29,318 nt of DNA from an uncultured virus (IMG/VR IMGVR_UViG_2675903231_000002) (lineage: Duplodnaviria; Heunggongvirae; Uroviricota; Caudoviricetes). Each line of letters begins with the position of its first letter. Within the stretch, counting starts at the first letter, position 1. The translations under genes were made by a program, and so were the position numbers. The DNA is taken from IMG/VR virus record IMGVR_UViG_2675903231_000002; one strand, 5' to 3'. Positions 7,131 to 20,685 of this stretch are shown here, piece by piece. Under the pieces are notes generated by a model. That model saw nothing but the letters and a program-made list of their open reading frames with translations. It did not search any database and had not been told where the DNA came from.

Positions 7131-7169
7131 GGCATCCCTCGCGTCTGGCGCTTGGAACGTGGAGGCATC

Positions 7170-7212
7170 CCCCCTCCGTCCCAAACGTGTAGACGGAGGG
7201 GTTCACCTCCTT
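7170..7212. repeat. Direct repeat copy 1 (palindromic, 43 bp)
   Basis: CCCCCTCCGTCCCAAACGTGTAGACGGAGGGGTTCACCTCCTT. It differs from 7504-7547 only in the hairpin loop. Confidence 0.95.
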
Positions 7213-7217
7213 TGTAT

Positions 7218-7469
7218 TCAGTCGTAAAAGTCTGTCGTTTCGTCGCTTCTCCGATTGGAACGGTCCGGCACCACGCGGAGTCCAAAAATACCTTTGGCGA
7301 AAAACGCGATGCCAACCCCTAGAAGGACGATACTAAAGTTATCACATGCCATTTCCTGTGCAGACTTAGGAAACATGTTCCACCCAAAATACCATGTTTC
7401 GAGTGTGTTAAACACTAATGCCAGAAGCATTAGAGCCAACCCAATCCATATCAGAGTCTTGGCTCTCAT
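7218..7469 (-). CDS. Small two-TM membrane protein
   Basis: ATG 7469 with SD AGGGAGG. Two hydrophobic helices. Visibly more AT-rich than the flanking genes. Confidence 0.8.
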   Translation of the reverse strand: MRAKTLIWIGLALMLLALVFNTLETWYFGWNMFPKSAQEMACDNFSIVLLGVGIAFFAKGIFGLRVVPDRSNRRSDETTDFYD

Positions 7470-7503
7470 CGTTGTATCCTCCCTTGGTATGACGCGGAAG
7501 GAT

Positions 7504-7547
7504 CCCCCTCCGTCCCAAGCGTGCAAGACGGAGGGGTTCACCTCCTT
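7504..7547. repeat. Direct repeat copy 2 (palindromic, 44 bp)
   Basis: CCCCCTCCGTCCCAAGCGTGCAAGACGGAGGGGTTCACCTCCTT. Confidence 0.95.
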
Positions 7548-7559
7548 GGTTTTACTGAT

Positions 7560-8609: not shown

Positions 8610-10082
8610 TTATTGTAGTGCTTCAATGACGAACGAAAGCGTCGCATCGTCGGCCACCTGCGGCTTGGCAATCACGTCGCTGAACGGCCGGACGGAACGG
8701 TCGTCGTATCCTATCACGACAGAGATCACCTGAAACTCCTTCTCGTTTTTCACCCGGGCGAATTCCCCGTGCAAAAACTTGTCGGAGACTCGGCTTTCCC
8801 CGTCGGTGATGAACACGATGTCGCCTTTCTTGAACGACGCTTCGTCCATGATCTGCACAGCCTCTTTCAGCGGTCTTTCAAAGTTTGTACCGCCGTTAAA
8901 GAAGTGCTGCGCCATTTCAACGAGTTGAACGGGCGACGCGTCCTTTGGCCGGGGCCACTTCTGCACGAAAATCTCGGGCTCGCTTCCGAAGTGCACCACG
9001 GCAAAGGCTCGCCTTTCCCGCCGTGCGATGGCGAACAGGGCCAGGGCGATGCCCTTCTCCCAGATTTCGACCGTACCAGCCGTGCTTCCGGATTCGTCAA
9101 GGCAAACCACGATGGGGCCCTGTCCTTCCCGCTCGAAGCCACGCAAGTCGTATTGCAACAGTCGGCGTTCTGCGAACCGTTGGATGAAATCATCCTCGGT
9201 CGCTGGGTCGGCCAGCAACAACAACTCCGATGGCAGGATGTTCGCGAGGTCGTCGCCCATCGTGATGTTGACGATCTCGGTCGGCGGATGAATGGTCCGG
9301 TTTTTGCGCTTGTTGAGGGCCATCATCTGCATACGGCCCGCCATCCGAGCGATCTCCCGGACGTGCGGATTCGTGCGCAGGATGTGCGCCAGTTCCAAGC
9401 GCTCCTTCCCACTCACCGGCTTACCGTCACCCATTCCGACACCAAACGCCTGCATCATGCGTTGATCTTCCTGCGCTTCCTGAACCGCCTGCTCCAACGC
9501 CTGTCGGACAGCACGGCCTATCGAACCGCTTTGAGCGTCGAATGCCTGCTCAAATTGGTCCGTGGCCTGTTGGAGCGTCTGCATCAGGTCGGCGGCTTGT
9601 TTTTGGAGCGCTTGTATTTGGTCAAGCAGCTGTGCCGCGGCTTGGCTATCTGGCATGGCATTCGCGGCTTCCTGGTACGCTTCGGCCTGGTCCAGCAGTT
9701 GTTGTAGCTGTTGTTCCAAGTCCTGTACTTGGTGTGCCGCGTGCCTGACATCCTCCGGCATCGCCTGTTCCAAGGCGTCCCGGAGGCTGAGCGACCCCAG
9801 CGCCGCACTGTACTCGTCCATCTGCGTCGTTTGACGCAGGTCTTTCCAAGCTGTTTGGCGCATGAGGTTTTCCATCACACGGCGGTTCACCGTGGGGCCC
9901 TGTTCGTTGATGTGTGGGCTCGCCTTGAAAAGGCTCGCCCACACATCCCGCATGAGACCCTGAAATGGTTCTTCCTTAACCGCAGCCTGAATCCGCTCGG
10001 ACTCTTCGAGGATCCGGTTCCAGGTCCGACGGTCGTAGCGATCTGTCTCAATTGCACCCACGTCGCTCAGATTCCCAGGCAT
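8610..10082 (-). CDS. VWA-domain protein (ViaA/CoxE-like)
   Basis: MIDAS motif DESGS, then GGTNF and FITDGE. Q/A-rich coiled coil. Overlaps the AAA gene. Confidence 0.9.
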   Translation of the reverse strand: MPGNLSDVGAIETDRYDRRTWNRILEESERIQAAVKEEPFQGLMRDVWASLFKASPHINEQGPTVNRRVMENLMRQTAWKDLRQTTQMDEYSAALGSLSLRDALEQAMPEDVRHAAHQVQDLEQQLQQLLDQAEAYQEAANAMPDSQAAAQLLDQIQALQKQAADLMQTLQQATDQFEQAFDAQSGSIGRAVRQALEQAVQEAQEDQRMMQAFGVGMGDGKPVSGKERLELAHILRTNPHVREIARMAGRMQMMALNKRKNRTIHPPTEIVNITMGDDLANILPSELLLLADPATEDDFIQRFAERRLLQYDLRGFEREGQGPIVVCLDESGSTAGTVEIWEKGIALALFAIARRERRAFAVVHFGSEPEIFVQKWPRPKDASPVQLVEMAQHFFNGGTNFERPLKEAVQIMDEASFKKGDIVFITDGESRVSDKFLHGEFARVKNEKEFQVISVVIGYDDRSVRPFSDVIAKPQVADDATLSFVIEALQ

Positions 10083-11191
10083 TTGCTCGTCACTCCTTTG
10101 AGCAGTTCTTCCACCTTCTTGTCGGCTTCCTGGATCCGTTGAATCTTGGATGGAGAGCCGCCAGCGGAGATGAAGGCCTGGATCTGCGTGCGGATGGTCT
10201 TGAGTTTCTTGATCGCTTCCGTCCCGATGGCAATCGCTTGGTCGTCCGAGGCTTTCATCGCGTTGTTCGCGATGTCCCGGGCATCCTCAAGCAACTCGGC
10301 CACCTGACCGGCCACCGGGTCGAGGCGCTTCCGGACGATGGTCGCCACGGTCGCCTTTTGCGACGGGTCCTCCCACAGCGCGTGCTGCAGGATTTCCGCG
10401 TCTTCCTCCAAGACAACGTGGTCGCGTCCGGCCAGCACAGCCCGGGCGGGCAGTAGGCGCTTGGCCACCTGCACCCAGCGGCGGTCGGAGAGGAAAATCC
10501 CCTCTTGCGCCAGATCGGTGCGCAGTGTTACCAGCGCATCTGCGACGGATTGGTCAATCGGAATTTGCTCCGCCAGGTGCTGCAACAGGTTCAGTTCCGC
10601 CAAGGTGATTGGTGCGGGAGACTGCGCTGGCGACTGCATCAGCATCGCCGCAAAGTTTCCGTCGTCCTTGACGTATCCCGGCTCGTACCGCAGCATGAAC
10701 CGGTCGAATACGGCCTGCAGCTCCTCCTCCTGCGGATACTCGTTGGATGTCCCAATGAGCGTCTTGAGTGGGGACGGCTCTTGCCGCGTCCCGTTGTAGA
10801 ACACCCGCTCGTTGATGAGCGTGAGCAGGGCGTTCAGGATCGCGCTGTTGGCCTTGAAAATTTCGTCCAGGTAAGCGATGTGCGCCGTAGGCAGCTTTCC
10901 GGCAGTGATCCGCTCGTATTGACCCGCCTTGAGTTTGGCTAGGTCGTACGGGCCGAACAGCTCTTCCGGAGTGCTGAACTTGGTGAGCAACCACTGGAAG
11001 TAGTTGCAACCCTCAATCAAACCCGACAGTGCCACTGTAATCGCACTTTTCGCCGTACCCGGAGGGCCGATAAGAAGCACGTGAACGTTGGCGACCAGGG
11101 CCGTGATGAGCCCATCCACAACATCCTCGCGTTCTTTGAACTGCCCCTGCAGATACGTCCGGATGTCGTTCAACTTTTGAATGGCGTTCAT
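10067..11191 (-). CDS. MoxR/RavA-family AAA+ ATPase
   Basis: Motifs GPPGTAKS, STPEELFGP, LDEIFKANSAILNALL and DRF. Confidence 0.92.
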   Translation of the reverse strand: MNAIQKLNDIRTYLQGQFKEREDVVDGLITALVANVHVLLIGPPGTAKSAITVALSGLIEGCNYFQWLLTKFSTPEELFGPYDLAKLKAGQYERITAGKLPTAHIAYLDEIFKANSAILNALLTLINERVFYNGTRQEPSPLKTLIGTSNEYPQEEELQAVFDRFMLRYEPGYVKDDGNFAAMLMQSPAQSPAPITLAELNLLQHLAEQIPIDQSVADALVTLRTDLAQEGIFLSDRRWVQVAKRLLPARAVLAGRDHVVLEEDAEILQHALWEDPSQKATVATIVRKRLDPVAGQVAELLEDARDIANNAMKASDDQAIAIGTEAIKKLKTIRTQIQAFISAGGSPSKIQRIQEADKKVEELLKGVTSKCLGI

Positions 11192-11197
11192 CAGAAA

Positions 11198-11266
11198 TCT
11201 CCTTTCGCCCCCGTGCTGTGCCGGGGGCTAAGGTTGATTAGCCCCGCACAGCCGGGGGAGAAGGAG
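11198..11266 (-). promoter_or_regulatory. Long hairpin from the upstream stop codon to the SD of the AAA gene
   Basis: CTCCTTCTCCCCCGGCTGTGCGGGGCTAA pairs with TTAGCCCCGGCACAGCACGGGGGCGAAAGGAG. Confidence 0.8.
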
Positions 11267-12166
11267 TTACAGCTTTTCGATCAAGGACATCATCTGCTGT
11301 TCGAGCAGGTCAACGTCCGTCTCCAGCGTTCCGATGCTCTCTTTCAGGATCTCCTGATAGAGAGTCACTTCCTGCCGGATGTGCTTCGCCCGCTCAAGCA
11401 ACGTCTGGATAGTGTCCTCCGTAATCACGTCTGCTTTCAACGTCGCTCGGATTTCGTTCAGGATCGTCTCGGCCTTGTTGGTCACGACGTCCCGAACCAT
11501 GTCCCGGGCCTCAGCCGTGTTCTCAACCGGTAGGTGGTATGCCTTGCATCCAGCCAAACGGTTGATGAACGCGATAAGCTGGAAAAGCAGTTCCTCGTTC
11601 TGCCGGGGAATCAGGTACACACCGCCTGACTCCTTGAGCGCGGTGGCCGACAAGTCGTTCAGAACCGCGTATACGGCCCGACGCTTGGCCCCGTCATCAT
11701 ACGTGGTGAGGAACAGCTCGTAGTTTTTGCGGAAGGTGTTTACCGCGTCCACGATAAACGGCTCGTCCCTCACGATCTCGACATCCACGGTCTTGTAGTT
11801 GTGGTCGAATCGCAGCAAGGCGGCCTTCGAATCGTAGGTCAGCCGGTGTCCGCTGGTATCCCGGATTTCCACGACAAGGTGACGCACCACCTCGTCCCGG
11901 TTGTGCCAGACGTCACGCACCAGCAGCTCGATCCGTCGATCACCGTCCAGCTTGGCACGTCCTTCGATGGACTTGCTTGCCCGCCGGTACGCATCCACGG
12001 CCCGAATGGGCGGGAGTTTGTATCGGTCAGGCAAACCCGATTCCATGAAGGCTCGCGCCATCGTGACCTGATCCGTGTAGGTTTCCCCGATGATGTACCA
12101 AAACAGTTGGCCGATCCGGCTGGCGGTCTGGTTTTGGTTCGCAACGAGATTCTCCAGTGCAAACAC
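11267..12166 (-). CDS. DUF6744-like protein (partner of AAA/VWA)
   Basis: Motifs IGQLFWY, DAYRRA and GGVYLIP. C-terminal coiled coil. GTG start with SD AAAGGAGG. Family assigned from memory of such trios. Confidence 0.7.
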   Translation of the reverse strand: MFALENLVANQNQTASRIGQLFWYIIGETYTDQVTMARAFMESGLPDRYKLPPIRAVDAYRRASKSIEGRAKLDGDRRIELLVRDVWHNRDEVVRHLVVEIRDTSGHRLTYDSKAALLRFDHNYKTVDVEIVRDEPFIVDAVNTFRKNYELFLTTYDDGAKRRAVYAVLNDLSATALKESGGVYLIPRQNEELLFQLIAFINRLAGCKAYHLPVENTAEARDMVRDVVTNKAETILNEIRATLKADVITEDTIQTLLERAKHIRQEVTLYQEILKESIGTLETDVDLLEQQMMSLIEKL

Positions 12167-12190
12167 TGTTGAATTCCTCCTTTTGTTTCG

Positions 12191-12331
12191 TTTCAGTGGT
12201 CTCAGGGTTCAGAGCTATCCTCTTGCCTTGAGACTGACGAATTTGTCCTCATCTCCAAGCGCCACCCGCCTGCACCGGGTGGGTGAATTTACCCGGTGCA
12301 GCGGGTTTGGCTTAGAGTGGGAACCACTGAA
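12191..12331 (-). promoter_or_regulatory. Multi-branched intergenic structure
   Basis: TTCAGTGGT/ACCACTGAA closing stem with an inner CCCGCTGCACCGGGT/ACCCGGTGCAGGCGGG hairpin. GTCTCAAGG/CCCTGAGAC competes with the closing stem. Confidence 0.7.
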
Positions 12332-13507
12332 TCAGCTTGCCGCGCGATCGGCTTCTTCGACTTGTGCTGTGAAGAGGGGGGCGATCAGACCGAGGCCGCC
12401 GTCCCCTACCGGTTTGACCGTGATGGGCTTATTGGGCCCGTCCAATCCCACCTCAACCTGTTTCACGCCGTCGGAGGAACGGAGCAAACCGATCCAGTAG
12501 TTGATGTTGCACAGGAGCGATAGCTCACTCGTAATCGTGCTGCTGACCACATCCACGTCGTGCTTCGCAGTTCCGTACTGCGCCGACGTGGCTGACACAA
12601 CAACGCGATCAGCGAAGAAGGTGAACTCCGCCCGTTGGTGTTCAGTCTCAGAAAGGATTGATACCCGTTCGCAGGCCTCCAGCAAAGTCGCCCGGTCGAT
12701 GATCACAGACGCGCCTGGTTGTTGCGGAATGATGCGGGATACATCCGGGTAACCCGTGCTCAATCCGCGAATGACCATGCGGTATGCGTCATCTCCCCAG
12801 GAGACCGTGCACGACGATGATCCGATAGAGAACGTAATCTCCTCGTCATCGTCATGCGCCGGCAGCACTGCCGCGAGTTTATCGAGCAATGCGGCCGGTA
12901 CTGGCAGGCTCCTCTCGTCTCCGGATACTTCCTGGCACGGTACGTTGTAAAGCGCCAGGCGTATCCCGTCGGTCGCCACTCCATGAAGCGTGGTGTCCGA
13001 GATTTTCAGCAACACGCCAGTCAGGGCCGGACGAGCTTCTCCCTTCGCCGCGGCATACGTCGTACGCCGCAGCAACCGGAACAAGTCCGGAGCAAGGATG
13101 ACGGCCGTGGTTGATTCGGCCGGGTCGTCACCGTAGGGCGTGAAGAGCTTCGGATCAAGCCCTGCCAGCTCGTATTTGGCGTTGCCAAAGGTGACGGACG
13201 TTCTCCCTGCGGTTTGGTGCAGGGTGATCTGACCGCTGGCACGCTTCACAATCTCGTGCAACTCCTTTGCCGGGAGCAGGCACGTACCTGACTTTTCGAT
13301 GGTGACTGGCGAGTTCGCCGCCTCCTGGAACAACGTCCGGCGGACCGACATGTCCTCGCTGCTCGCGTAGAAATCCACCCGGTCTTCGTCCTTGTTCGCC
13401 TGGATGAGCACGTGCCGCAGCACCGCCTTGTTGGTCGAGGTCGGGACCACACGTACCAGGTCGCGCAACACCTTTTCCAGCTCGGTGTTGTTGAAGGTTG
13501 CTTTCAT
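12332..13507 (-). CDS. dnaN: DNA polymerase III beta sliding clamp (element-encoded)
   Basis: Motifs RPALTGV, VATDGIRLA and YPDVSRIIP. Start re-assigned to ATG 13507 (MKATFN) with SD AAAGGAG. Confidence 0.92.
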   Translation of the reverse strand: MKATFNNTELEKVLRDLVRVVPTSTNKAVLRHVLIQANKDEDRVDFYASSEDMSVRRTLFQEAANSPVTIEKSGTCLLPAKELHEIVKRASGQITLHQTAGRTSVTFGNAKYELAGLDPKLFTPYGDDPAESTTAVILAPDLFRLLRRTTYAAAKGEARPALTGVLLKISDTTLHGVATDGIRLALYNVPCQEVSGDERSLPVPAALLDKLAAVLPAHDDDEEITFSIGSSSCTVSWGDDAYRMVIRGLSTGYPDVSRIIPQQPGASVIIDRATLLEACERVSILSETEHQRAEFTFFADRVVVSATSAQYGTAKHDVDVVSSTITSELSLLCNINYWIGLLRSSDGVKQVEVGLDGPNKPITVKPVGDGGLGLIAPLFTAQVEEADRAAS

Positions 13508-13550
13508 CGCGATCTCTCCTTTGTGTTGGTAGTCGTATGACCGAATACGG

Positions 13551-13847
13551 TCAACGAAAAACCAGCCGATTCCACAGAGGCTCCGCTTTCGTGGGTACCT
13601 CCAGGATGTCGCCTGGTTTGAGTTGCATGGCATCACGGATGTGGTTGCGCTGAATGATAGCCTCTACCACATACCGCGTGTCGTCCGGACATTGTTTCTC
13701 CGCGATGGACCACACCGTTTGCCCTGGCTCGACGACGACCTGTTTCCAACCCGATAAGTCGGGAGGAAGAAGCCGTAGGACCAGGAGTGCGTCGATCCCC
13801 GCGAGGATAAGCCCAATCCCGGCGTATCGTTTGATTCGCATTGCCAT
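13551..13847 (-). CDS. N-terminal TM plus LysM protein (YneA-like)
   Basis: Hydrophobic N-terminus, then VVVEPGQTVWSIA...LKPGDILEVP (LysM). Confidence 0.85.
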   Translation of the reverse strand: MAMRIKRYAGIGLILAGIDALLVLRLLPPDLSGWKQVVVEPGQTVWSIAEKQCPDDTRYVVEAIIQRNHIRDAMQLKPGDILEVPTKAEPLWNRLVFR

Positions 13848-13925
13848 CCCCTCCGTGGGTATCGTCCACCCACGGGACCCGCCGCCCGAGGGTGATGAGT
13901 AACCCCCGTATGGCGGGTGGGGTTG
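13848..13925 (-). promoter_or_regulatory. Intergenic hairpins overlapping the SD of the LysM gene
   Basis: ACCCGCC/GGCGGGT and CCGTGGGT/ACCCACGG stems. The second overlaps the start of GGAGGGG. Confidence 0.6.
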
Positions 13926-13931
13926 TACAAC

Positions 13932-14195
13932 TTACTGGCGCTTACGCCGCACTGCTACAGTGGACTCCCATTCATCCGCGGAGTACACCGTGATGATCGT
14001 GTTGGGCTTGGCCAGAACGACGTGCACCGGCTTTCCGTTGACATCCCCGCGTTTCATGACGCGGGTTCCGTTCTCTTGTACGGTCACGCCGACCTGGGCG
14101 ATCTGCTCGACCGCTTCAACGGGTAACCGGCGTTCGAGAATGCGTCGCACGGCGTGCCCGTCAAACACGGGCTTGGACATGGTTTTCAGTTTCAT
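13932..14195 (-). CDS. DUF4258-family protein
   Basis: FDGHAVRRILERRL...PVHVV...IITVY. Start re-assigned to ATG 14195 with SD GGAAGG. Confidence 0.8.
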   Translation of the reverse strand: MKLKTMSKPVFDGHAVRRILERRLPVEAVEQIAQVGVTVQENGTRVMKRGDVNGKPVHVVLAKPNTIITVYSADEWESTVAVRRKRQ

Positions 14196-14199
14196 GGTG

Positions 14200-14337
14200 T
14201 CACACCTTCCATTCGTCGATGTCCTCTCGGCGTGCGGTAAGCGCAGCCGGCAGAGTGCCATCGAAGTAGTGTTTGAGCATCTGGTCAAGCACGTATCCGT
14301 CGTCGTCAGACGCAAAGAACGCTGGGATCTGACACAT
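14200..14337 (-). CDS. 45-aa acidic small protein (not in the ORF track)
   Basis: MCQIPAFFASDDDGYVLDQMLKHYFDGTLPAALTARREDIDEWKV. It fills the gap between flanking genes (3 and 4 nt spacers) and has a G-rich SD. Confidence 0.65.
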   Translation of the reverse strand: MCQIPAFFASDDDGYVLDQMLKHYFDGTLPAALTARREDIDEWKV

Positions 14338-14340
14338 CCC

Positions 14341-15900
14341 TTACGCCCCCTGCGCGTGTGCGACGTCAGATACGATCTGGACCTCCAGCGGGCGATCCGC
14401 GACATACGCGGCGATGACCTGACCGCCAAACGTCTCGTCGAAAAGTCGCTGCACGGATTCGGCGTTGTCCACGTACACGGGCATCGGCTCACCCTTTGCC
14501 TGTGCGAGGACGCGGCCGATCTCGAGATCGCACCGCACCTTTTCCGAGAACGACAGCAACCGGTAAGGCCGACCCTTCCACGTAATCCTGAACGTCTCGC
14601 GGGTCTCGCCGGTTTCCTTGTTCCTGTCCGTCAAGTGAATGCGGACGTGCTCGAAAAGGCCGTTGAGCTTATCGTGCTGGGCGCGCAGGTACTGGAAGCG
14701 GAAATCCTGCAAGGCCTTCAACTTGCGCTGCAAGCCATCCAGGCGCTGACGTTCGGCTTCTAGTTCTTGCCGCACCCGCTCGATGTTCGCCCGGGCATCC
14801 TCATACGTCCGCAAGTTGGCGACATACGCGACCTCCAGAAAGTGCTCGTCTTTGAGGCGTTTCTCGATCTCTTGGACAAACCGTACCAGTTCGGCATCGG
14901 GTGCGGCGGTTTTCGGCAACGCTTCAAGTTGCTCGATCTCCGCCTTGACCTGGTTGCCTTCCTGGAACATCTCAGCCAATCTCACCTTGGCCGCCTTCGT
15001 CTTTTCAGCCACTTCTCGGCGGATCTGCTCCACCTTGTCAGGGGGTAATGGTTGCCCGCAGGTGTGGCAGTGGGTGTCCACTCTGGGGAGACTGTCTCGT
15101 AATGCACGGAAGTCCCGGCCCAGCGATTCGCGCCGTTCACGCAGCTCCTTCAAGCGCTGTTGCCGATGCTCGGCTTCCGTCTCGCGCTTGATGAGTTCTC
15201 GCTTGGCCGCTTCGTACTGCTGGCGTTCCTCGTCCGTGACTTGGCTGACAAAGGGCTTCGGTGCTCCCTTCTCAATGGCCGAAAGGTACACACTGCGCTG
15301 CCCTTCCAAACGCAGTACGGTCTCTTCGCAGGCCTTGATTTCCTGTCGAAGCCGCTGGGCGGCGTAATCGACGGAATCCAGACCCATGACGAAGAGGTCG
15401 TTCGCCAGAAGCTCCCGGTTGTCCAGGCGCATCCGAGCGAGAACCTCATCCTTGGTCACGTCGGGGACACATCGGCTCAAGACGGTTTTGGCGTCCTTCG
15501 GCTCCAGACTGCTGAAATAGCCCGGAAAAAAGATCGACAGGAACTCCTGTACCGTCCCAAACCAGCCTTCTATTTGACCGGGGGTTGGCTTCCTTCCATT
15601 CACCAACTGCACCGAGCCCTTACTTCCGACCCGTGTGCGCGAGATGGTGACCGGGCGTTTGTGGCTTTTGAGGAGAAATGTTGCGGTGACCGCCATGCTC
15701 TTGGCACCCAGGCGCATCAGGCTTTCGTCCTGCTTGGTCTTGCCGTAGATGTTGGTGCCCCACAGACACCACACGACAGCTTCGGCCAGCGTGGACTTGC
15801 CCGCGCCGTTGTGCCCGTACACGGTGGTTACGTCGCCGAAGGTGAACTCGGCGCGTTCAAAGCAGCGGAAGTTCTCCAAGACGAGCGCTTGGAGTTTCAT
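14341..15900 (-). CDS. Rad50/SbcC-like (SMC-family) ATPase
   Basis: LENFRCF, Walker A GHNGAGKST, coiled coil with Zn-hook CHTCGQ, signature LSFSEK and Walker B VYVDNAE. Confidence 0.88.
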   Translation of the reverse strand: MKLQALVLENFRCFERAEFTFGDVTTVYGHNGAGKSTLAEAVVWCLWGTNIYGKTKQDESLMRLGAKSMAVTATFLLKSHKRPVTISRTRVGSKGSVQLVNGRKPTPGQIEGWFGTVQEFLSIFFPGYFSSLEPKDAKTVLSRCVPDVTKDEVLARMRLDNRELLANDLFVMGLDSVDYAAQRLRQEIKACEETVLRLEGQRSVYLSAIEKGAPKPFVSQVTDEERQQYEAAKRELIKRETEAEHRQQRLKELRERRESLGRDFRALRDSLPRVDTHCHTCGQPLPPDKVEQIRREVAEKTKAAKVRLAEMFQEGNQVKAEIEQLEALPKTAAPDAELVRFVQEIEKRLKDEHFLEVAYVANLRTYEDARANIERVRQELEAERQRLDGLQRKLKALQDFRFQYLRAQHDKLNGLFEHVRIHLTDRNKETGETRETFRITWKGRPYRLLSFSEKVRCDLEIGRVLAQAKGEPMPVYVDNAESVQRLFDETFGGQVIAAYVADRPLEVQIVSDVAHAQGA

Positions 15901-15904
15901 GGGA

Positions 15905-15995
15905 ATCCCTCCCGTGGGTGTGTTTTGAACACAAGCCCACGGTCGATGCCGGGGCTTGTGTGAAACAGGCCCCGCGCATCATGCGGGATGATGTT
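15905..15995 (-). promoter_or_regulatory. Cascade of overlapping hairpins upstream of the SMC-like gene
   Basis: GATGC..GGGGC/GCCCC.GCATC competes with CACAAGCCC.CGG/CCG.GGGCTTGTG, which competes with CCGTGGG..TGTGTT/AACACACCCACGG next to SD GGAGGG. Confidence 0.7.
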
Positions 15996-18508: not shown

Positions 18509-19051
18509 CTAGCTGACCGCTCCCCCACATACAGGTTCTGCGTGGGTATGATCAGCTTGGACATCGTTTTCTCCCTCCGCGAGCAGCCTCATCAGTCGTT
18601 CGGTTTGCTCGCGCTTGAATTTCTCGTGTGCCTGCCACTCACGCCAGATCCAATCAAGCTCAGCCTTGCGACGGCGATGCCATTCAATGGGGTTGACTCC
18701 CTTTGGCGCACTCCGTCGCGGCGTTCTCAAGGTGAACCCGAGTTCCGCCAGCTGCGCTTTGGTCAGGCGCTCAGCGGGGTGCAACAGGCGCTTGGGCCGG
18801 CCGTCCTGCGGGTACAGTTCCGCCTTCGCAGCCTCGAAGCTAATGCCTCGAAGCCACGCGTGGAAAGCAACCACTCCGCCCTTTGCCCCACACTTGTGAC
18901 AGTAGAACGTGTCTTTGACTGCGGACACGTACAGGTGAAAGTCTCGGCCCTGATCTCCGCACACCGGGCAATGGGCCTTGTACTGGCCAGGGCGGGACGT
19001 CTTGTACAACACGAGCTGGTTGCGTTGTGCAACTTCCTCAATGCCGACCAA
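18509..19051 (-). CDS. CHC2-type zinc-finger protein (primase Zn-binding domain, no TOPRIM domain)
   Basis: HCPVCGD...FYCHKCGAKGGVV...GISFEAA. TTG start at 19051 with SD GAGGGGGG. Confidence 0.82.
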   Translation of the reverse strand: MVGIEEVAQRNQLVLYKTSRPGQYKAHCPVCGDQGRDFHLYVSAVKDTFYCHKCGAKGGVVAFHAWLRGISFEAAKAELYPQDGRPKRLLHPAERLTKAQLAELGFTLRTPRRSAPKGVNPIEWHRRRKAELDWIWREWQAHEKFKREQTERLMRLLAEGENDVQADHTHAEPVCGGAVS

Positions 19052-19108
19052 GCCGATCCCCCCCTCGTGCACGTGCAGTGGCTTGTGCATACCGCATAAG
19101 AAGCACTC

Positions 19109-19171
19109 TCAGAGTGTTTTGGGGTACTTGTCGGTAAGCGTGAGGGGTTCAATGTGAGGATTACTTCGCAT
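19109..19171 (-). CDS. Possible 20-aa leader peptide
   Basis: MRSNPHIEPLTLTDKYPKTL, with SD GGGAG 8 nt upstream inside a stem. Confidence 0.3.
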   Translation of the reverse strand: MRSNPHIEPLTLTDKYPKTL

Positions 19172-19241
19172 TTGCATCTCTCCCGATTCTCCCCGCTTGG
19201 CCGCCGGGGAGACTGATTTTTCCCCGCGGCTGGGGATCGGG

Positions 19242-19318
19242 AAATAAAAAGGCAAGCGCTAAAAAAGCATCTCGACACTTGGATTGATCCAAGAATCCAG
19301 ACGCTTGAAGCGCTTGCC
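19242..19318 (-). terminator. Long-stem intrinsic terminator/attenuator in the operon leader
   Basis: GGCAAGCGCT...AGCGCTTGCC followed by TTTTTATTT. The inner stem AAGCGTCT..CTTGGAT-CA-ATCCAAG..AGATGCTT is followed by its own T run. Confidence 0.75.
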
Positions 19319-19690
19319 CTTTAACCGCCTTCGGCTTACGCCGTCCAGCGGATTCCCTACCTACATGTTTGCGACTGCCTTCGCCCCGTCACCGGTCGCA
19401 TTCGGATGATCAACGGGGGATCCAACATCTGTCCCCGGATACCGTCTCGTTCAGTGAGACCGGCTGCTTCGTATCCGGGTAATCCCATCGACCTGATTGC
19501 CAAGGTGGTGATGGGAAGATGATAATGCGTCACAGACTAAAGCGACCTCGCAGAGCGCCCCGACTCGACAGTTGCTGGATCGTTACCAGGAAAGTGGCGC
19601 GCCTTTCCTTCGCTCACTTAGTGAGGATCCAGAACTCCGGCACTCACCCGCTTAGGGGCTATTACGTGCCTTCAAACACCTTCTGAGTAC
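19242..19690 (-). ncRNA. Putative ~450 nt structured leader RNA
   Basis: Lies between the promoter and the terminator with no credible ORF and continuous stems (e.g. CCCGGATAC/GTATCCGGG, TCCCATC/GATGGGA, TGCGAC/GTCGCA, AGGAAAG/CTTTCCT, GGCAC/GTGCC). Confidence 0.55.
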
Positions 19691-19696
19691 AGCGTT

Positions 19697-19725
19697 ATCA
19701 TATCTCAAGATTATTACACGCGCAA
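19697..19725 (-). promoter_or_regulatory. SigmaA-type promoter
   Basis: TTGCGC (19725-19720), a 17 bp spacer, then TATGAT (19702-19697), in an AT-rich patch directly after a terminator. Confidence 0.75.
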
Positions 19726-19736
19726 TAGACCTTGAC

Positions 19737-19769
19737 AAAAAATTAGCACCACCTCTTGGCGGTGCTAAT
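19737..19769 (-). terminator. Intrinsic terminator of the Tad/S1 block
   Basis: ATTAGCACCGCCAAGAGGTGGTGCTAAT followed by TTTTT, about 16 nt after the S1 gene stop. Confidence 0.88.
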
Positions 19770-19785
19770 CACCAGTTGCCTGGCT

Positions 19786-20685
19786 TTAGGCTACTGGTTG
19801 AGCAATTACGCCTTCCACTGTACCGAGCAGAACCTTTTCCTCCTCGTTACGTCCAGTGATTCGGAGCGACACCCAAGTTCCTGTCCGGAACATTTCTCGC
19901 TCACCGCCCCGCCGGAAACGCACGCTCACACCATCATGCAGCACTGCGTAGCCGTTGCTTCCACGCACGACGCGAACCTGCCCTACCACGTGGCTGCCGT
20001 TGATGTACTTGCCTTTATGCAGGTCATACGGATTGTCCATGGCGTCTTTCCGGGATACCACAATGGTCTTTCCTGAGCGTTCTGGCATGATTTTGACTGT
20101 GACCATTTCCCCGATTCCCAACTCACGCGGCTGAACCACGCCAAAATCGACCAAGGACAATGGCAGCCATGTGGAAAATCCACCGACGTCCACAATGTAA
20201 CCGCGAGGCAACCGCCGGGCGATCACACCCGTCCAATTCGTGCCTGGAGACATCTTCGGCAGGTTCGCATTTTGCATAGCTTCGCGTGCTCGCCGTCTCG
20301 AGAACAACAGCAGAGGCCGTTCTCCCGTGCCCGGATTAAATCGGTCCGGCATCACCGCGATGAGCCGGTTGTAGTACCGCGGGAACTGTCTCGCGTTTGC
20401 AATTCCAGATTCGGACAGCGGGATATGCCCGATGAGCGGCCCGAACCGAATCATGAGTGCCTCTTCTTCCCGCCACTCTTGTTGGTTGTCTTGTTTGTTG
20501 AAGTAATACTTGATCCGTTCGGACCCAGTGACGAGGGCCTGCACGACAGTGTCATTGCTACGCCACGACATGAACATCATCAGGGCGTGTTCATCGCTGT
20601 CGAATTGCTGTGGGTTGATTCTTGCTCCTTCCGCAGTAATGTTCAGATACACCGGAATCGCATCCACATTAACTTCCTCCCTCAC
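19786..20685 (-). CDS. S1 (OB-fold) RNA-binding domain protein
   Basis: WTGVIARRLPRGYIVDVGGFSTWLPLS...IGEMVTVKI...IVVSRK, then a second degenerate S1 repeat. Confidence 0.8.
   Translation of the reverse strand: MREEVNVDAIPVYLNITAEGARINPQQFDSDEHALMMFMSWRSNDTVVQALVTGSERIKYYFNKQDNQQEWREEEALMIRFGPLIGHIPLSESGIANARQFPRYYNRLIAVMPDRFNPGTGERPLLLFSRRRAREAMQNANLPKMSPGTNWTGVIARRLPRGYIVDVGGFSTWLPLSLVDFGVVQPRELGIGEMVTVKIMPERSGKTIVVSRKDAMDNPYDLHKGKYINGSHVVGQVRVVRGSNGYAVLHDGVSVRFRRGGEREMFRTGTWVSLRITGRNEEEKVLLGTVEGVIAQPVA

Follow-up and report, generated by a model that had tools for sequence, protein, structure and literature searches.

It is only in recent years that long leader RNAs acting in cis have come to be seen as central to the control of conjugation and establishment operons in Gram-positive mobile elements, and the known ones, conAn2, cATT and canT, each form a separate, poorly conserved sequence family. 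The pLS20-type conAn system is described as a protein, ConAn1, together with an RNA, conAn2, which is 260-600 nt long, poorly conserved and located at the head of a long operon (PMC8191782). conAn2 lies downstream of conAn1 (Pfam PF17362, pXO2-34); the conAn2 regions share 30-40% identity and are described as having a central region between 20-bp inverted repeats, together with two stem-loops and a GC-rich tract (PMC8191782). The cATT element of pLS20 is reported as a zipper-type attenuator in a 456-nt leader before a long operon, with a proposed role as a post-initiation checkpoint. There, a separate terminator follows the long stem-loop, whose stem becomes longer when a weak stem-loop lying upstream pairs with the 5' half of that terminator (PMC13401043). 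Tn916 canT is described as a 452-nt orientation-specific cis-acting RNA antiterminator region 3' of the main element promoter, behind which a terminator is placed only after excision (PMC11658703). The EAR and put RNAs are reported as cis-acting, structured, RNA-only processive antiterminators (PMC8191782). Long cis-acting leader RNAs in Gram-positive conjugative elements therefore have precedent (PMC8191782, PMC13401043, PMC11658703).

The leader analysed here appears, by analogy, to be the same kind of device as pLS20 cATT and conAn2 and Tn916 canT, without detected similarity to plasmid records and without a detected ConAn1. Its layout would place it closest to canT. A cis RNA of approximately 450 nt is predicted to follow a promoter and to be closed off by a guarding terminator, with DNA-processing genes beyond it, the likeness being one of layout only; unlike in Tn916, the terminator here is fixed directly behind the RNA. 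As with conAn2, a long RNA stands at the head of a long operon in a Gram-positive conjugative element, and a protein-plus-RNA logic like that of conAn may be provided here by a neighbouring gene for an S1-domain-like protein. Unlike in conAn, the RNA directly follows the promoter, without a detected ConAn1. PF17362 had no match among the 30 ORFs of the window and 42 other ORFs of the contig (Pfam), nor was it found in the element's own genome at E values up to 0.01, the control genomes likewise giving no match. By this protein criterion, the leader is therefore not a conAn system. The dissimilarity to plasmid records is not decisive against conAn2, because conAn2 regions share so little identity among themselves.

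The leader shares with cATT a similar length, a long imperfect stem-loop and an intrinsic terminator upstream of the first Shine-Dalgarno (SD) sequence. Unlike in cATT, the distance from U-run to SD is 57 nt, against the 0-26 nt given for the pLS20 family (PMC13401043), approximately 370 nt of conserved multi-branch structure precede the terminator, and no conAn1 follows. Pairing with the terminator that would extend a stem as in cATT was not found, the scan giving only long-range candidates, and the hairpins 3' of the terminator lack U-runs. Since the long imperfect hairpin is here the terminator itself, this is not the cATT arrangement. The leader also differs from EAR and put, which are much smaller; it has no match in Rfam, which presumably includes EAR among its families.

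Compared with these systems, the present leader is unusually well defined, with a promoter, a fold of approximately 370 nt with invariant loops, a long-stem terminator and a predicted SD-proximal hairpin switch. It is duplicated in one element and occupies the same locus in two genera of acidothermophilic Alicyclobacillaceae. Such a compact, conserved module with a candidate RNA-binding neighbour is amenable to direct testing.

Genomic setting of the leader

The window, by which we mean the whole 29,318-nt stretch of DNA that was analysed, makes up the final 29.3 kb of contig G000:C49, which is 91 kb long; almost all genes in the window are on the minus strand. According to Pfam, the block upstream of the leader encodes Tad/type II secretion F-like proteins, a prepilin peptidase, an Alp7A-like actin and a 299-aa protein. 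The block downstream comprises 18 ORFs on the same strand (Pfam), whose products include a CHC2 primase-type zinc finger, a Gp3-like protein, SSB, two DUF4258 proteins, an SMC-like ATPase and a DnaN-like clamp, together with DUF6744, MoxR and VWA proteins, a DUF6094 methyltransferase, an SNF2-type helicase and Prok-E2/JAB/Ub proteins. Elsewhere on the contig are VirB4-like and T4SS-pilin genes, helicases, an integrase and a type IV CRISPR-Cas-like locus. This gene content indicates that the replicon is a conjugative element of large size, whether plasmid or integrative.

The two blocks are separated by an intergenic gap of 695 nt (19091-19785). A sequence-only reading of the window had described a gene-free stretch before the first gene of the operon, and indeed no credible ORF lies between 19785 and 19091, with the CHC2 gene beginning at 19090.

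A duplicated module with a narrow distribution

A second copy of the module, running from promoter to AUG, lies on the same contig and strand (copy B, C49:9168-9741). It is 72 kb from the copy in the window (copy A) and 94% identical to it, and the identity ends directly after the AUG. The sequence-only reading had included neither this second copy nor the compound terminator and the post-terminator hairpins, SD and AUG described below. The module is also present in two other genomes, G027 and G021, which belong to the same family (Alicyclobacillaceae) and to a different genus, with matches approximately 70-78% identical. The S1-like 299-aa gene, the leader and the CHC2, Gp3-like and SSB genes are syntenic in the three genomes, the CHC2 orthologue standing downstream of the leader in G027 and G021 as well. 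The comparison set thus consists of four copies in two near-identical pairs, that is, two independent lineages.

In G027, the S1-like gene and the leader are separated by an inserted TnpB (IS605 OrfB) gene (L016 13111-14403), and a second TnpB interrupts the operon 3' of SSB. The operon region of G027 also holds an ArdC-N gene.

The sequence-only reading had proposed an unannotated RNA. None of the 4227 models of Rfam 15 matched anywhere in the window at gathering score. At E values up to 5, region 19000-19850 gave only chance-level matches to SCARNA20 and chrB-b (14-15 bits), and nothing relevant was found in loci L013-L015 either. A riboswitch of any known class was rejected, as no Rfam aptamer class matches; an aptamer of a new ligand-binding class is conceivable.

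Homologue searches by other routes gave a similarly restricted picture. With blastn, the leader had no match among 72,556 plasmid records or 50,697 phage records, and the leader region was found in three of 45 genomes of the family. A pattern scan of genome contigs returned three loci, two of them true (L014 and L015, with the same alignment identities and lengths as L002 and L003); the third was rejected as a chance match within a ribosomal protein L2 gene. The same scan gave one non-homologous locus in metagenomes and no locus in viral contigs, where the Gp3-like protein has no relative either. Model R1, built on the 5' domain, scores 122-139 bits on the four copies, with matches in 3 of the 64 order-level genomes and in 2 of the 151 sampled from the class. 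Among five genomes with CHC2 relatives, it gave a single chance-level match (18 bits), and searches with the CHC2 and S1-like proteins in 401 genomes of the phylum found only distant relatives, none with a long leader. By this sequence evidence, the leader RNA is a real but narrow family of four copies in three genomes and two lineages, and, as judged by the databases searched, it belongs to no described family. A full-text literature search found nothing on a noncoding RNA of conjugative elements in Alicyclobacillus. Among publications on conjugative leader RNA antitermination, no title or opening of an abstract named a system with an S1 domain.

Promoters and terminators

The promoter placed at 19697-19725 by the sequence-only reading was recovered exactly (P2): on the minus strand, TTGCGC (19725-19720) and TATGAT (19702-19697) are separated by 17 nt. 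Across the four copies, the -35 hexamer reads TTGCGC, TTGCGC, TTGCAG and TTGCAA, and the -10 hexamer is TATGAT in three and TAAGAT in one (Table 1). Judging from the promoter spacing, transcription would start near 19690. A further promoter-like site, P1 (TTGTCA-17-AATAAT with a TG), has its -35 hexamer absent from copy B, G027 and G021. On the plus strand, a promoter-like site in antisense orientation (19497-19526) is present in both copies of the element.

Upstream of P2, the gene block that includes the S1-like gene ends in an intrinsic terminator, which is predicted from its sequence to insulate the leader promoter. At the other end of the leader lies a compound terminator, consisting of a 14-bp outer stem (19322-19309/19260-19247), an inner hairpin of approximately 20 bp and a U-run (19250-19242), which is retained, U-run included, in all four copies. 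These are the two strongest of the seven minus-strand terminator-like sites in the window; the scan found few such sites in the interior of the operon. No promoter-like site was found by the promoter scan between the compound terminator and the CHC2 gene.

Table 1. Positions of the leader, its predicted elements and the adjoining genes in the window
Feature	Position	Strand	Evidence
S1-domain-like protein gene, 299 aa	19786..20685	-	directly upstream of the leader
Intrinsic terminator of the upstream Tad/Alp/S1-like gene block	19741..19770	-	13-bp stem and T-run; -34 kcal/mol (terminator scan)
Promoter-like site P1, TTGTCA-17-AATAAT with TG	19710..19738	-	10/12 matches; copy A only
Promoter P2, sigma-A-type	19697..19725	-	hexamers conserved in 4/4 copies, spacer divergent
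5' domain: hairpin H1/H1a (19670-19639) and three-way junction H2/H2a/H2b (19634-19572)	19572..19670	-	alignments
Central domain: P3 (CUGUC/GACAG) closing H3b/H3c, H4, H5/H5a	19429..19571	-	alignment, paired changes
H6 (CCCCGU/ACGGGG) and H7 (UGCGAC/GUCGCA), mutually crossing	19370..19418	-	alignment
Variable linker, conserved GGGAAUCC, hairpin H8	19323..19369	-	alignment
Compound intrinsic terminator of the leader	19242..19322	-	sequence and predicted folds
Post-terminator CCCC/GGGG/CCCC/GGGG segments	19189..19235	-	folds predicted on alignments
Shine-Dalgarno GGGAGAG (19184-19178) and conserved AUG (19171-19169)	19169..19184	-	end of the duplicated module
CHC2 zinc-finger gene (primase-type zinc ribbon), first intact operon gene	18509..19090	-	Pfam PF01807, E 1e-7; PHROG DNA primase, E 3e-11

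Predicted fold and strand

Almost continuous helices had been claimed for the region from sequence alone, and the sense strand of 19705-19240 folds at -187.2 kcal/mol (z = -4.54), with 0 of 100 shuffles as good. The antisense strand folds almost equally well (z = -4.34), so fold energy alone cannot assign the strand. In the alignment, 33 G-U cells stand against 8 A-C cells, and the consensus energy is -108 kcal/mol for the sense and -89 kcal/mol for the antisense strand; the sense (minus) strand is therefore favoured.

The structured part of the leader before the terminator spans approximately 370 nt and is multi-branched. In its 5' domain, H1/H1a falls within a 33-nt run that is invariant except for one loop base. 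H2 changes from CUGGAU/AUCCAG to CUGGAG/CUCCAG between the lineages, and H2b from GGAAAG/CUUUCC to GGAAGU/ACUUCC in G027 and GGAAGU/AUUUCC in G021. MAFFT misaligns both of these helices, and three further compensatory pairs appear in them after model-guided or manual re-alignment.

The multibranch domain that had been claimed at 19426-19521 corresponds to the central domain, which is closed by P3 (19571-19429) and holds hairpins H4 (19516-19483) and H5 (19479-19434), both of which show compensatory changes. Pairs changed on both sides occur in H3b, H3c, H4 (C-G to U-A) and H5 (two pairs, C-G to U-A and G-C to A-U), and the H3c pair is C-G, U-G or U-A among the copies. One pair of P3 is C-A in G021. 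The loop of H3b/H3c, UUUAGUCU, is invariant.

Further 3', the crossing of H6 and H7 forms a possible pseudoknot. H7 changes from U-A to C-G and from A-U to G-U, while H6 is weak, its compensatory change appearing only after re-alignment by eye of an insertion in G027. The linker that follows carries an insertion of approximately 95 nt in G027 and G021. In this segment (19369-19323), GGGA (19357-19354) pairs with UCCC 3' of the terminator in all four copies, one of the pairs being G-U or G-C, and the inner pair of H8 changes from U-G to A-U. In the outer stem of the terminator, one G-C pair is A-U in G027 and G021.

Past the terminator, the CCCC/GGGG segments are predicted to form either two hairpins (19235-19222 and 19211-19189) or a single long one. 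Their bases are invariant in the four copies, so there is no covariation evidence for these hairpins. AUG codons lie at 19177 and 19171 in the window. The conserved AUG opens a 60-aa ORF between leader and CHC2 in G027 and G021, whereas the window has only a 22-codon remnant (19177-19109) ahead of CHC2, which, by comparison of these sequences, has been left by a deletion.

Several other candidates were rejected. A leader peptide encoded by the 58-codon ORF at 19357-19533 would be disrupted by indels in G027 and G021. In both lineages the 5' tail could pair with the AUG region, and the 3' half of H1 with the 3' arm of the terminator, but these pairings are G-U-rich and show no covariation.

Conservation and paired substitutions

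Between the two lineages, the leader is 73% identical (5' domain 77%, central domain 76%, terminator 82%, post-terminator region 81%), while third codon positions of four flanking genes are 42-54% identical between the same lineages. As measured by this comparison of sequences, the leader is conserved well above neutral sites. Its indels of approximately 1, 2, 4, 5, 10, 11 and 95 nt indicate that the region is non-coding.

A model of 117 pairs was curated by hand with both lineages in view. Of its 462 cells, 95.2% are paired. Both sides have changed in seven of its pairs, compared with 0-2 in six slid controls; the covariation score reaches 0.124, compared with 0.037-0.068 in those controls. 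Because the curated model had seen both lineages, we also ran an unbiased test in which the minimum free energy (MFE) fold of copy A was tried in G027. Its 150 pairs comprised 88 unchanged, 14 changed on one side, nine changed on both sides, 32 broken and seven gapped; the slid controls had 0-3 double changes, against the nine observed. Substitutions within lineages (19 unpaired, 7 paired) are not numerous enough to strengthen the case. With only two independent lineages, covariation cannot attain significance of the R-scape type, and the evidence for a functional sense-strand RNA, although consistent, is suggestive and not statistically conclusive. The sequence features, their conservation and the structure-consistent substitutions are themselves direct observations.

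The upstream S1-like gene

The gene directly upstream of the leader encodes a protein that matches NCBIfam rpsA with an E value of 1e-8, far under the curated cut-off, and bS1 chains of the PDB with an E value of approximately 1e-7 over residues 114-250. Pfam S1 matches three of four aligned homologues and not the window's own protein. The protein is 81% identical in G027 and approximately 80% identical in G021, and its gene lies upstream of the leader in all three genomes, directly adjoining it in G021. An AlphaFold model, at a mean pLDDT of 48, was of too low quality for searching by fold. Position and domain similarity make the S1-like protein a candidate RNA-binding partner of the leader.

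Proposed function of the leader

The promoter, the terminator, the covariation and the conservation above neutral sites together provide good support for a conserved, structured sense-strand RNA predicted to head the operon. We consider it probable that this minus-strand 5' leader RNA controls read-through of its terminator in cis through the upstream fold, by attenuation or RNA-based antitermination. In this capacity, the leader would most likely decide whether the replication/establishment operon is read. A cis-regulatory role is preferred because conservation extends beyond the terminator to the SD and AUG. We infer termination, read-through control and any protein partner from sequence. 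The structured RNA that the sequence-only reading placed at the head of the operon is thus well supported, and the cis-regulatory role it named is the preferred one. For its further claims of a master switch and of antitermination, there are analogies only: ConAn1 (PF17362) was not found, and internal terminators are few.

In the mechanism that we propose, the conserved sigma-A-type promoter would start the transcript near 19690, and the first approximately 370 nt would fold into H1, the three-way junction, the central multi-branch domain and the possible pseudoknot. Polymerase would then meet the very stable compound terminator at 19322-19242 and by default would in most cases stop near 19245, giving an RNA of approximately 450 nt. 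The downstream genes would require read-through, the share of which would be set by the structured domain. The fold may render polymerase resistant to the terminator, as reported for canT (Tn916) and conAn2 (pLS20). Alternatively, it may bind a factor, encoded by the element or by the host, through which the terminator is switched, with the S1-domain-like protein as a candidate. For transcripts that read through, the GGGA/UCCC closing helix and the CCCC/GGGG hairpins near the SD could form a translational gate. A scan of terminator-arm pairings found no convincingly conserved antiterminator. The best candidate (positions 130-137/377-384) has one compensatory pair, is long-range and crosses P3. 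Given the few terminator-like sites inside the operon, processive antitermination is not obviously needed.

The same elements could also belong to a stand-alone, trans-acting noncoding RNA of approximately 450 nt, with the compound terminator as its true 3' end and the downstream genes expressed independently. Such an RNA would account for a promoter of its own followed by a very strong long-stem terminator, for the two copies per element and for the position of copy B, which is not fused directly to a long operon: before the next sizeable gene come a terminator and a palindromic promoter. However, the 75 nt past the terminator, with two hairpins, SD and AUG, are conserved (near-identical between copies A and B, 81% identical between lineages), the GGGA/UCCC helix links both sides of the terminator, and there is no promoter-like site between terminator and CHC2. 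We therefore regard this explanation as unlikely. Less probable still, and to our minds a long way from convincing, is a role as single-stranded DNA in conjugative transfer or rolling-circle replication, be it as a single-strand origin, a priming site or a hairpin promoter such as Frpo, the hairpin ssDNA promoter of F leading regions. The genes behind the leader are of the establishment or leading type (SSB, primase-type zinc finger, DnaN-like clamp, methyltransferase, and ArdC-N in G027), both strands fold well, and copy A has arms complementary to the -35 and -10 regions (I16, I17). Yet these arms are lost in copy B and deleted in G027 and G021, and Frpo-like pairing of the promoter boxes was accordingly rejected as a feature of copy A only. 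The wobble asymmetry, moreover, favours the sense strand and not the template strand that an ssDNA promoter needs, and conservation in register is seen for a promoter of the duplex type, a terminator with U-run and an SD/AUG. A transfer or replication origin lacking RNA-level covariation, the alternative raised by the sequence-only reading, is not supported, although a small chance of it remains.

Replication-type genes downstream would also suit an RNA that serves as a replication pre-primer or controls copy number and is countered by an antisense RNA, as are ColE1 RNA II and the Inc18 repR leader. The plus-strand site noted above (TTGCCA-18-GATAAT, 10/12 matches) would drive transcription of an RNA complementary to the 5' domain. 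Its -35 hexamer, however, falls in an 11-nt deletion in G027 and G021, and the structured part of the L002 leader has no plus-strand promoter-like site, the only matches overlapping the AUG end. Because the site is not conserved, the pre-primer/antisense reading is weakened; two such origins per replicon are unlikely, and the SD/AUG coupling would be unaccounted for. We hold this explanation to be very improbable. There is only a slender chance that the region is conserved as duplex DNA carrying protein-binding sites, its apparent RNA structure being incidental. There are just two lineages, and the many invariant helices are uninformative either way, but 7-10 pairs change on both sides, compared with 0-3 in controls, fold z-scores reach -4.5, and the region has no iterons or repeated boxes, only short two-copy matches.

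Returning to control of read-through in cis, a more far-reaching version of it is conceivable, although we think it doubtful. The leader could represent a new class of large (approximately 370-450 nt) cis RNAs which, with the upstream S1-domain protein, would form a two-part switch, acting by attenuation or antitermination and unrelated in sequence to conAn and canT. Such a switch might activate two separate operons of the element at once, with one RNA copy each, for example on entry into a new host.

Further observations on the element

The surroundings of copy B differ from those of copy A. On its 3' side stands a remnant of nine codons, followed by an ORF for a hydrophobic 51-aa product, then a terminator and finally a separate promoter with palindromic sequence. 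In this stretch (L009 8793-9010, on G000:C49), the 51-aa ORF encodes two hydrophobic helices, has a good SD and is followed by a terminator-like hairpin. Beyond this hairpin lies a perfect palindrome with face-to-face TTGACT-17-TATGAT promoter-like sites, and then a 173-aa gene of unknown function. The type IV CRISPR-Cas-like locus is found just upstream of copy B (approximately 10240-15937 of G000:C49, L009). It comprises weak Csf1, Csf2 and Csf3 matches, a RecD2-like helicase, a Cas6-like protein and seven or eight direct repeats with a period of approximately 73 nt.

In the window, the end of the operon (58-2325) holds a trio of Prok-E2, JAB and prokaryotic ubiquitin-like genes, and the bpMoxR-VWA-DUF6744 set and the DnaN-like clamp lie at 8610-12166. 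For an establishment region, these genes are an unusual cargo. Between the two groups, a pair of inverted repeats of approximately 62 nt, 86% identical (7157-7218 and 7492-7553), flanks a 107-aa ORF (7218-7541), and both repeats contain the hairpin GGAGGGGTTCACCTCC. The final 130 nt of the contig (window 29189-29318) recur on more than 10 other contigs with 87-100% identity, often at contig ends, and probably represent the end of an insertion sequence that broke the assembly.
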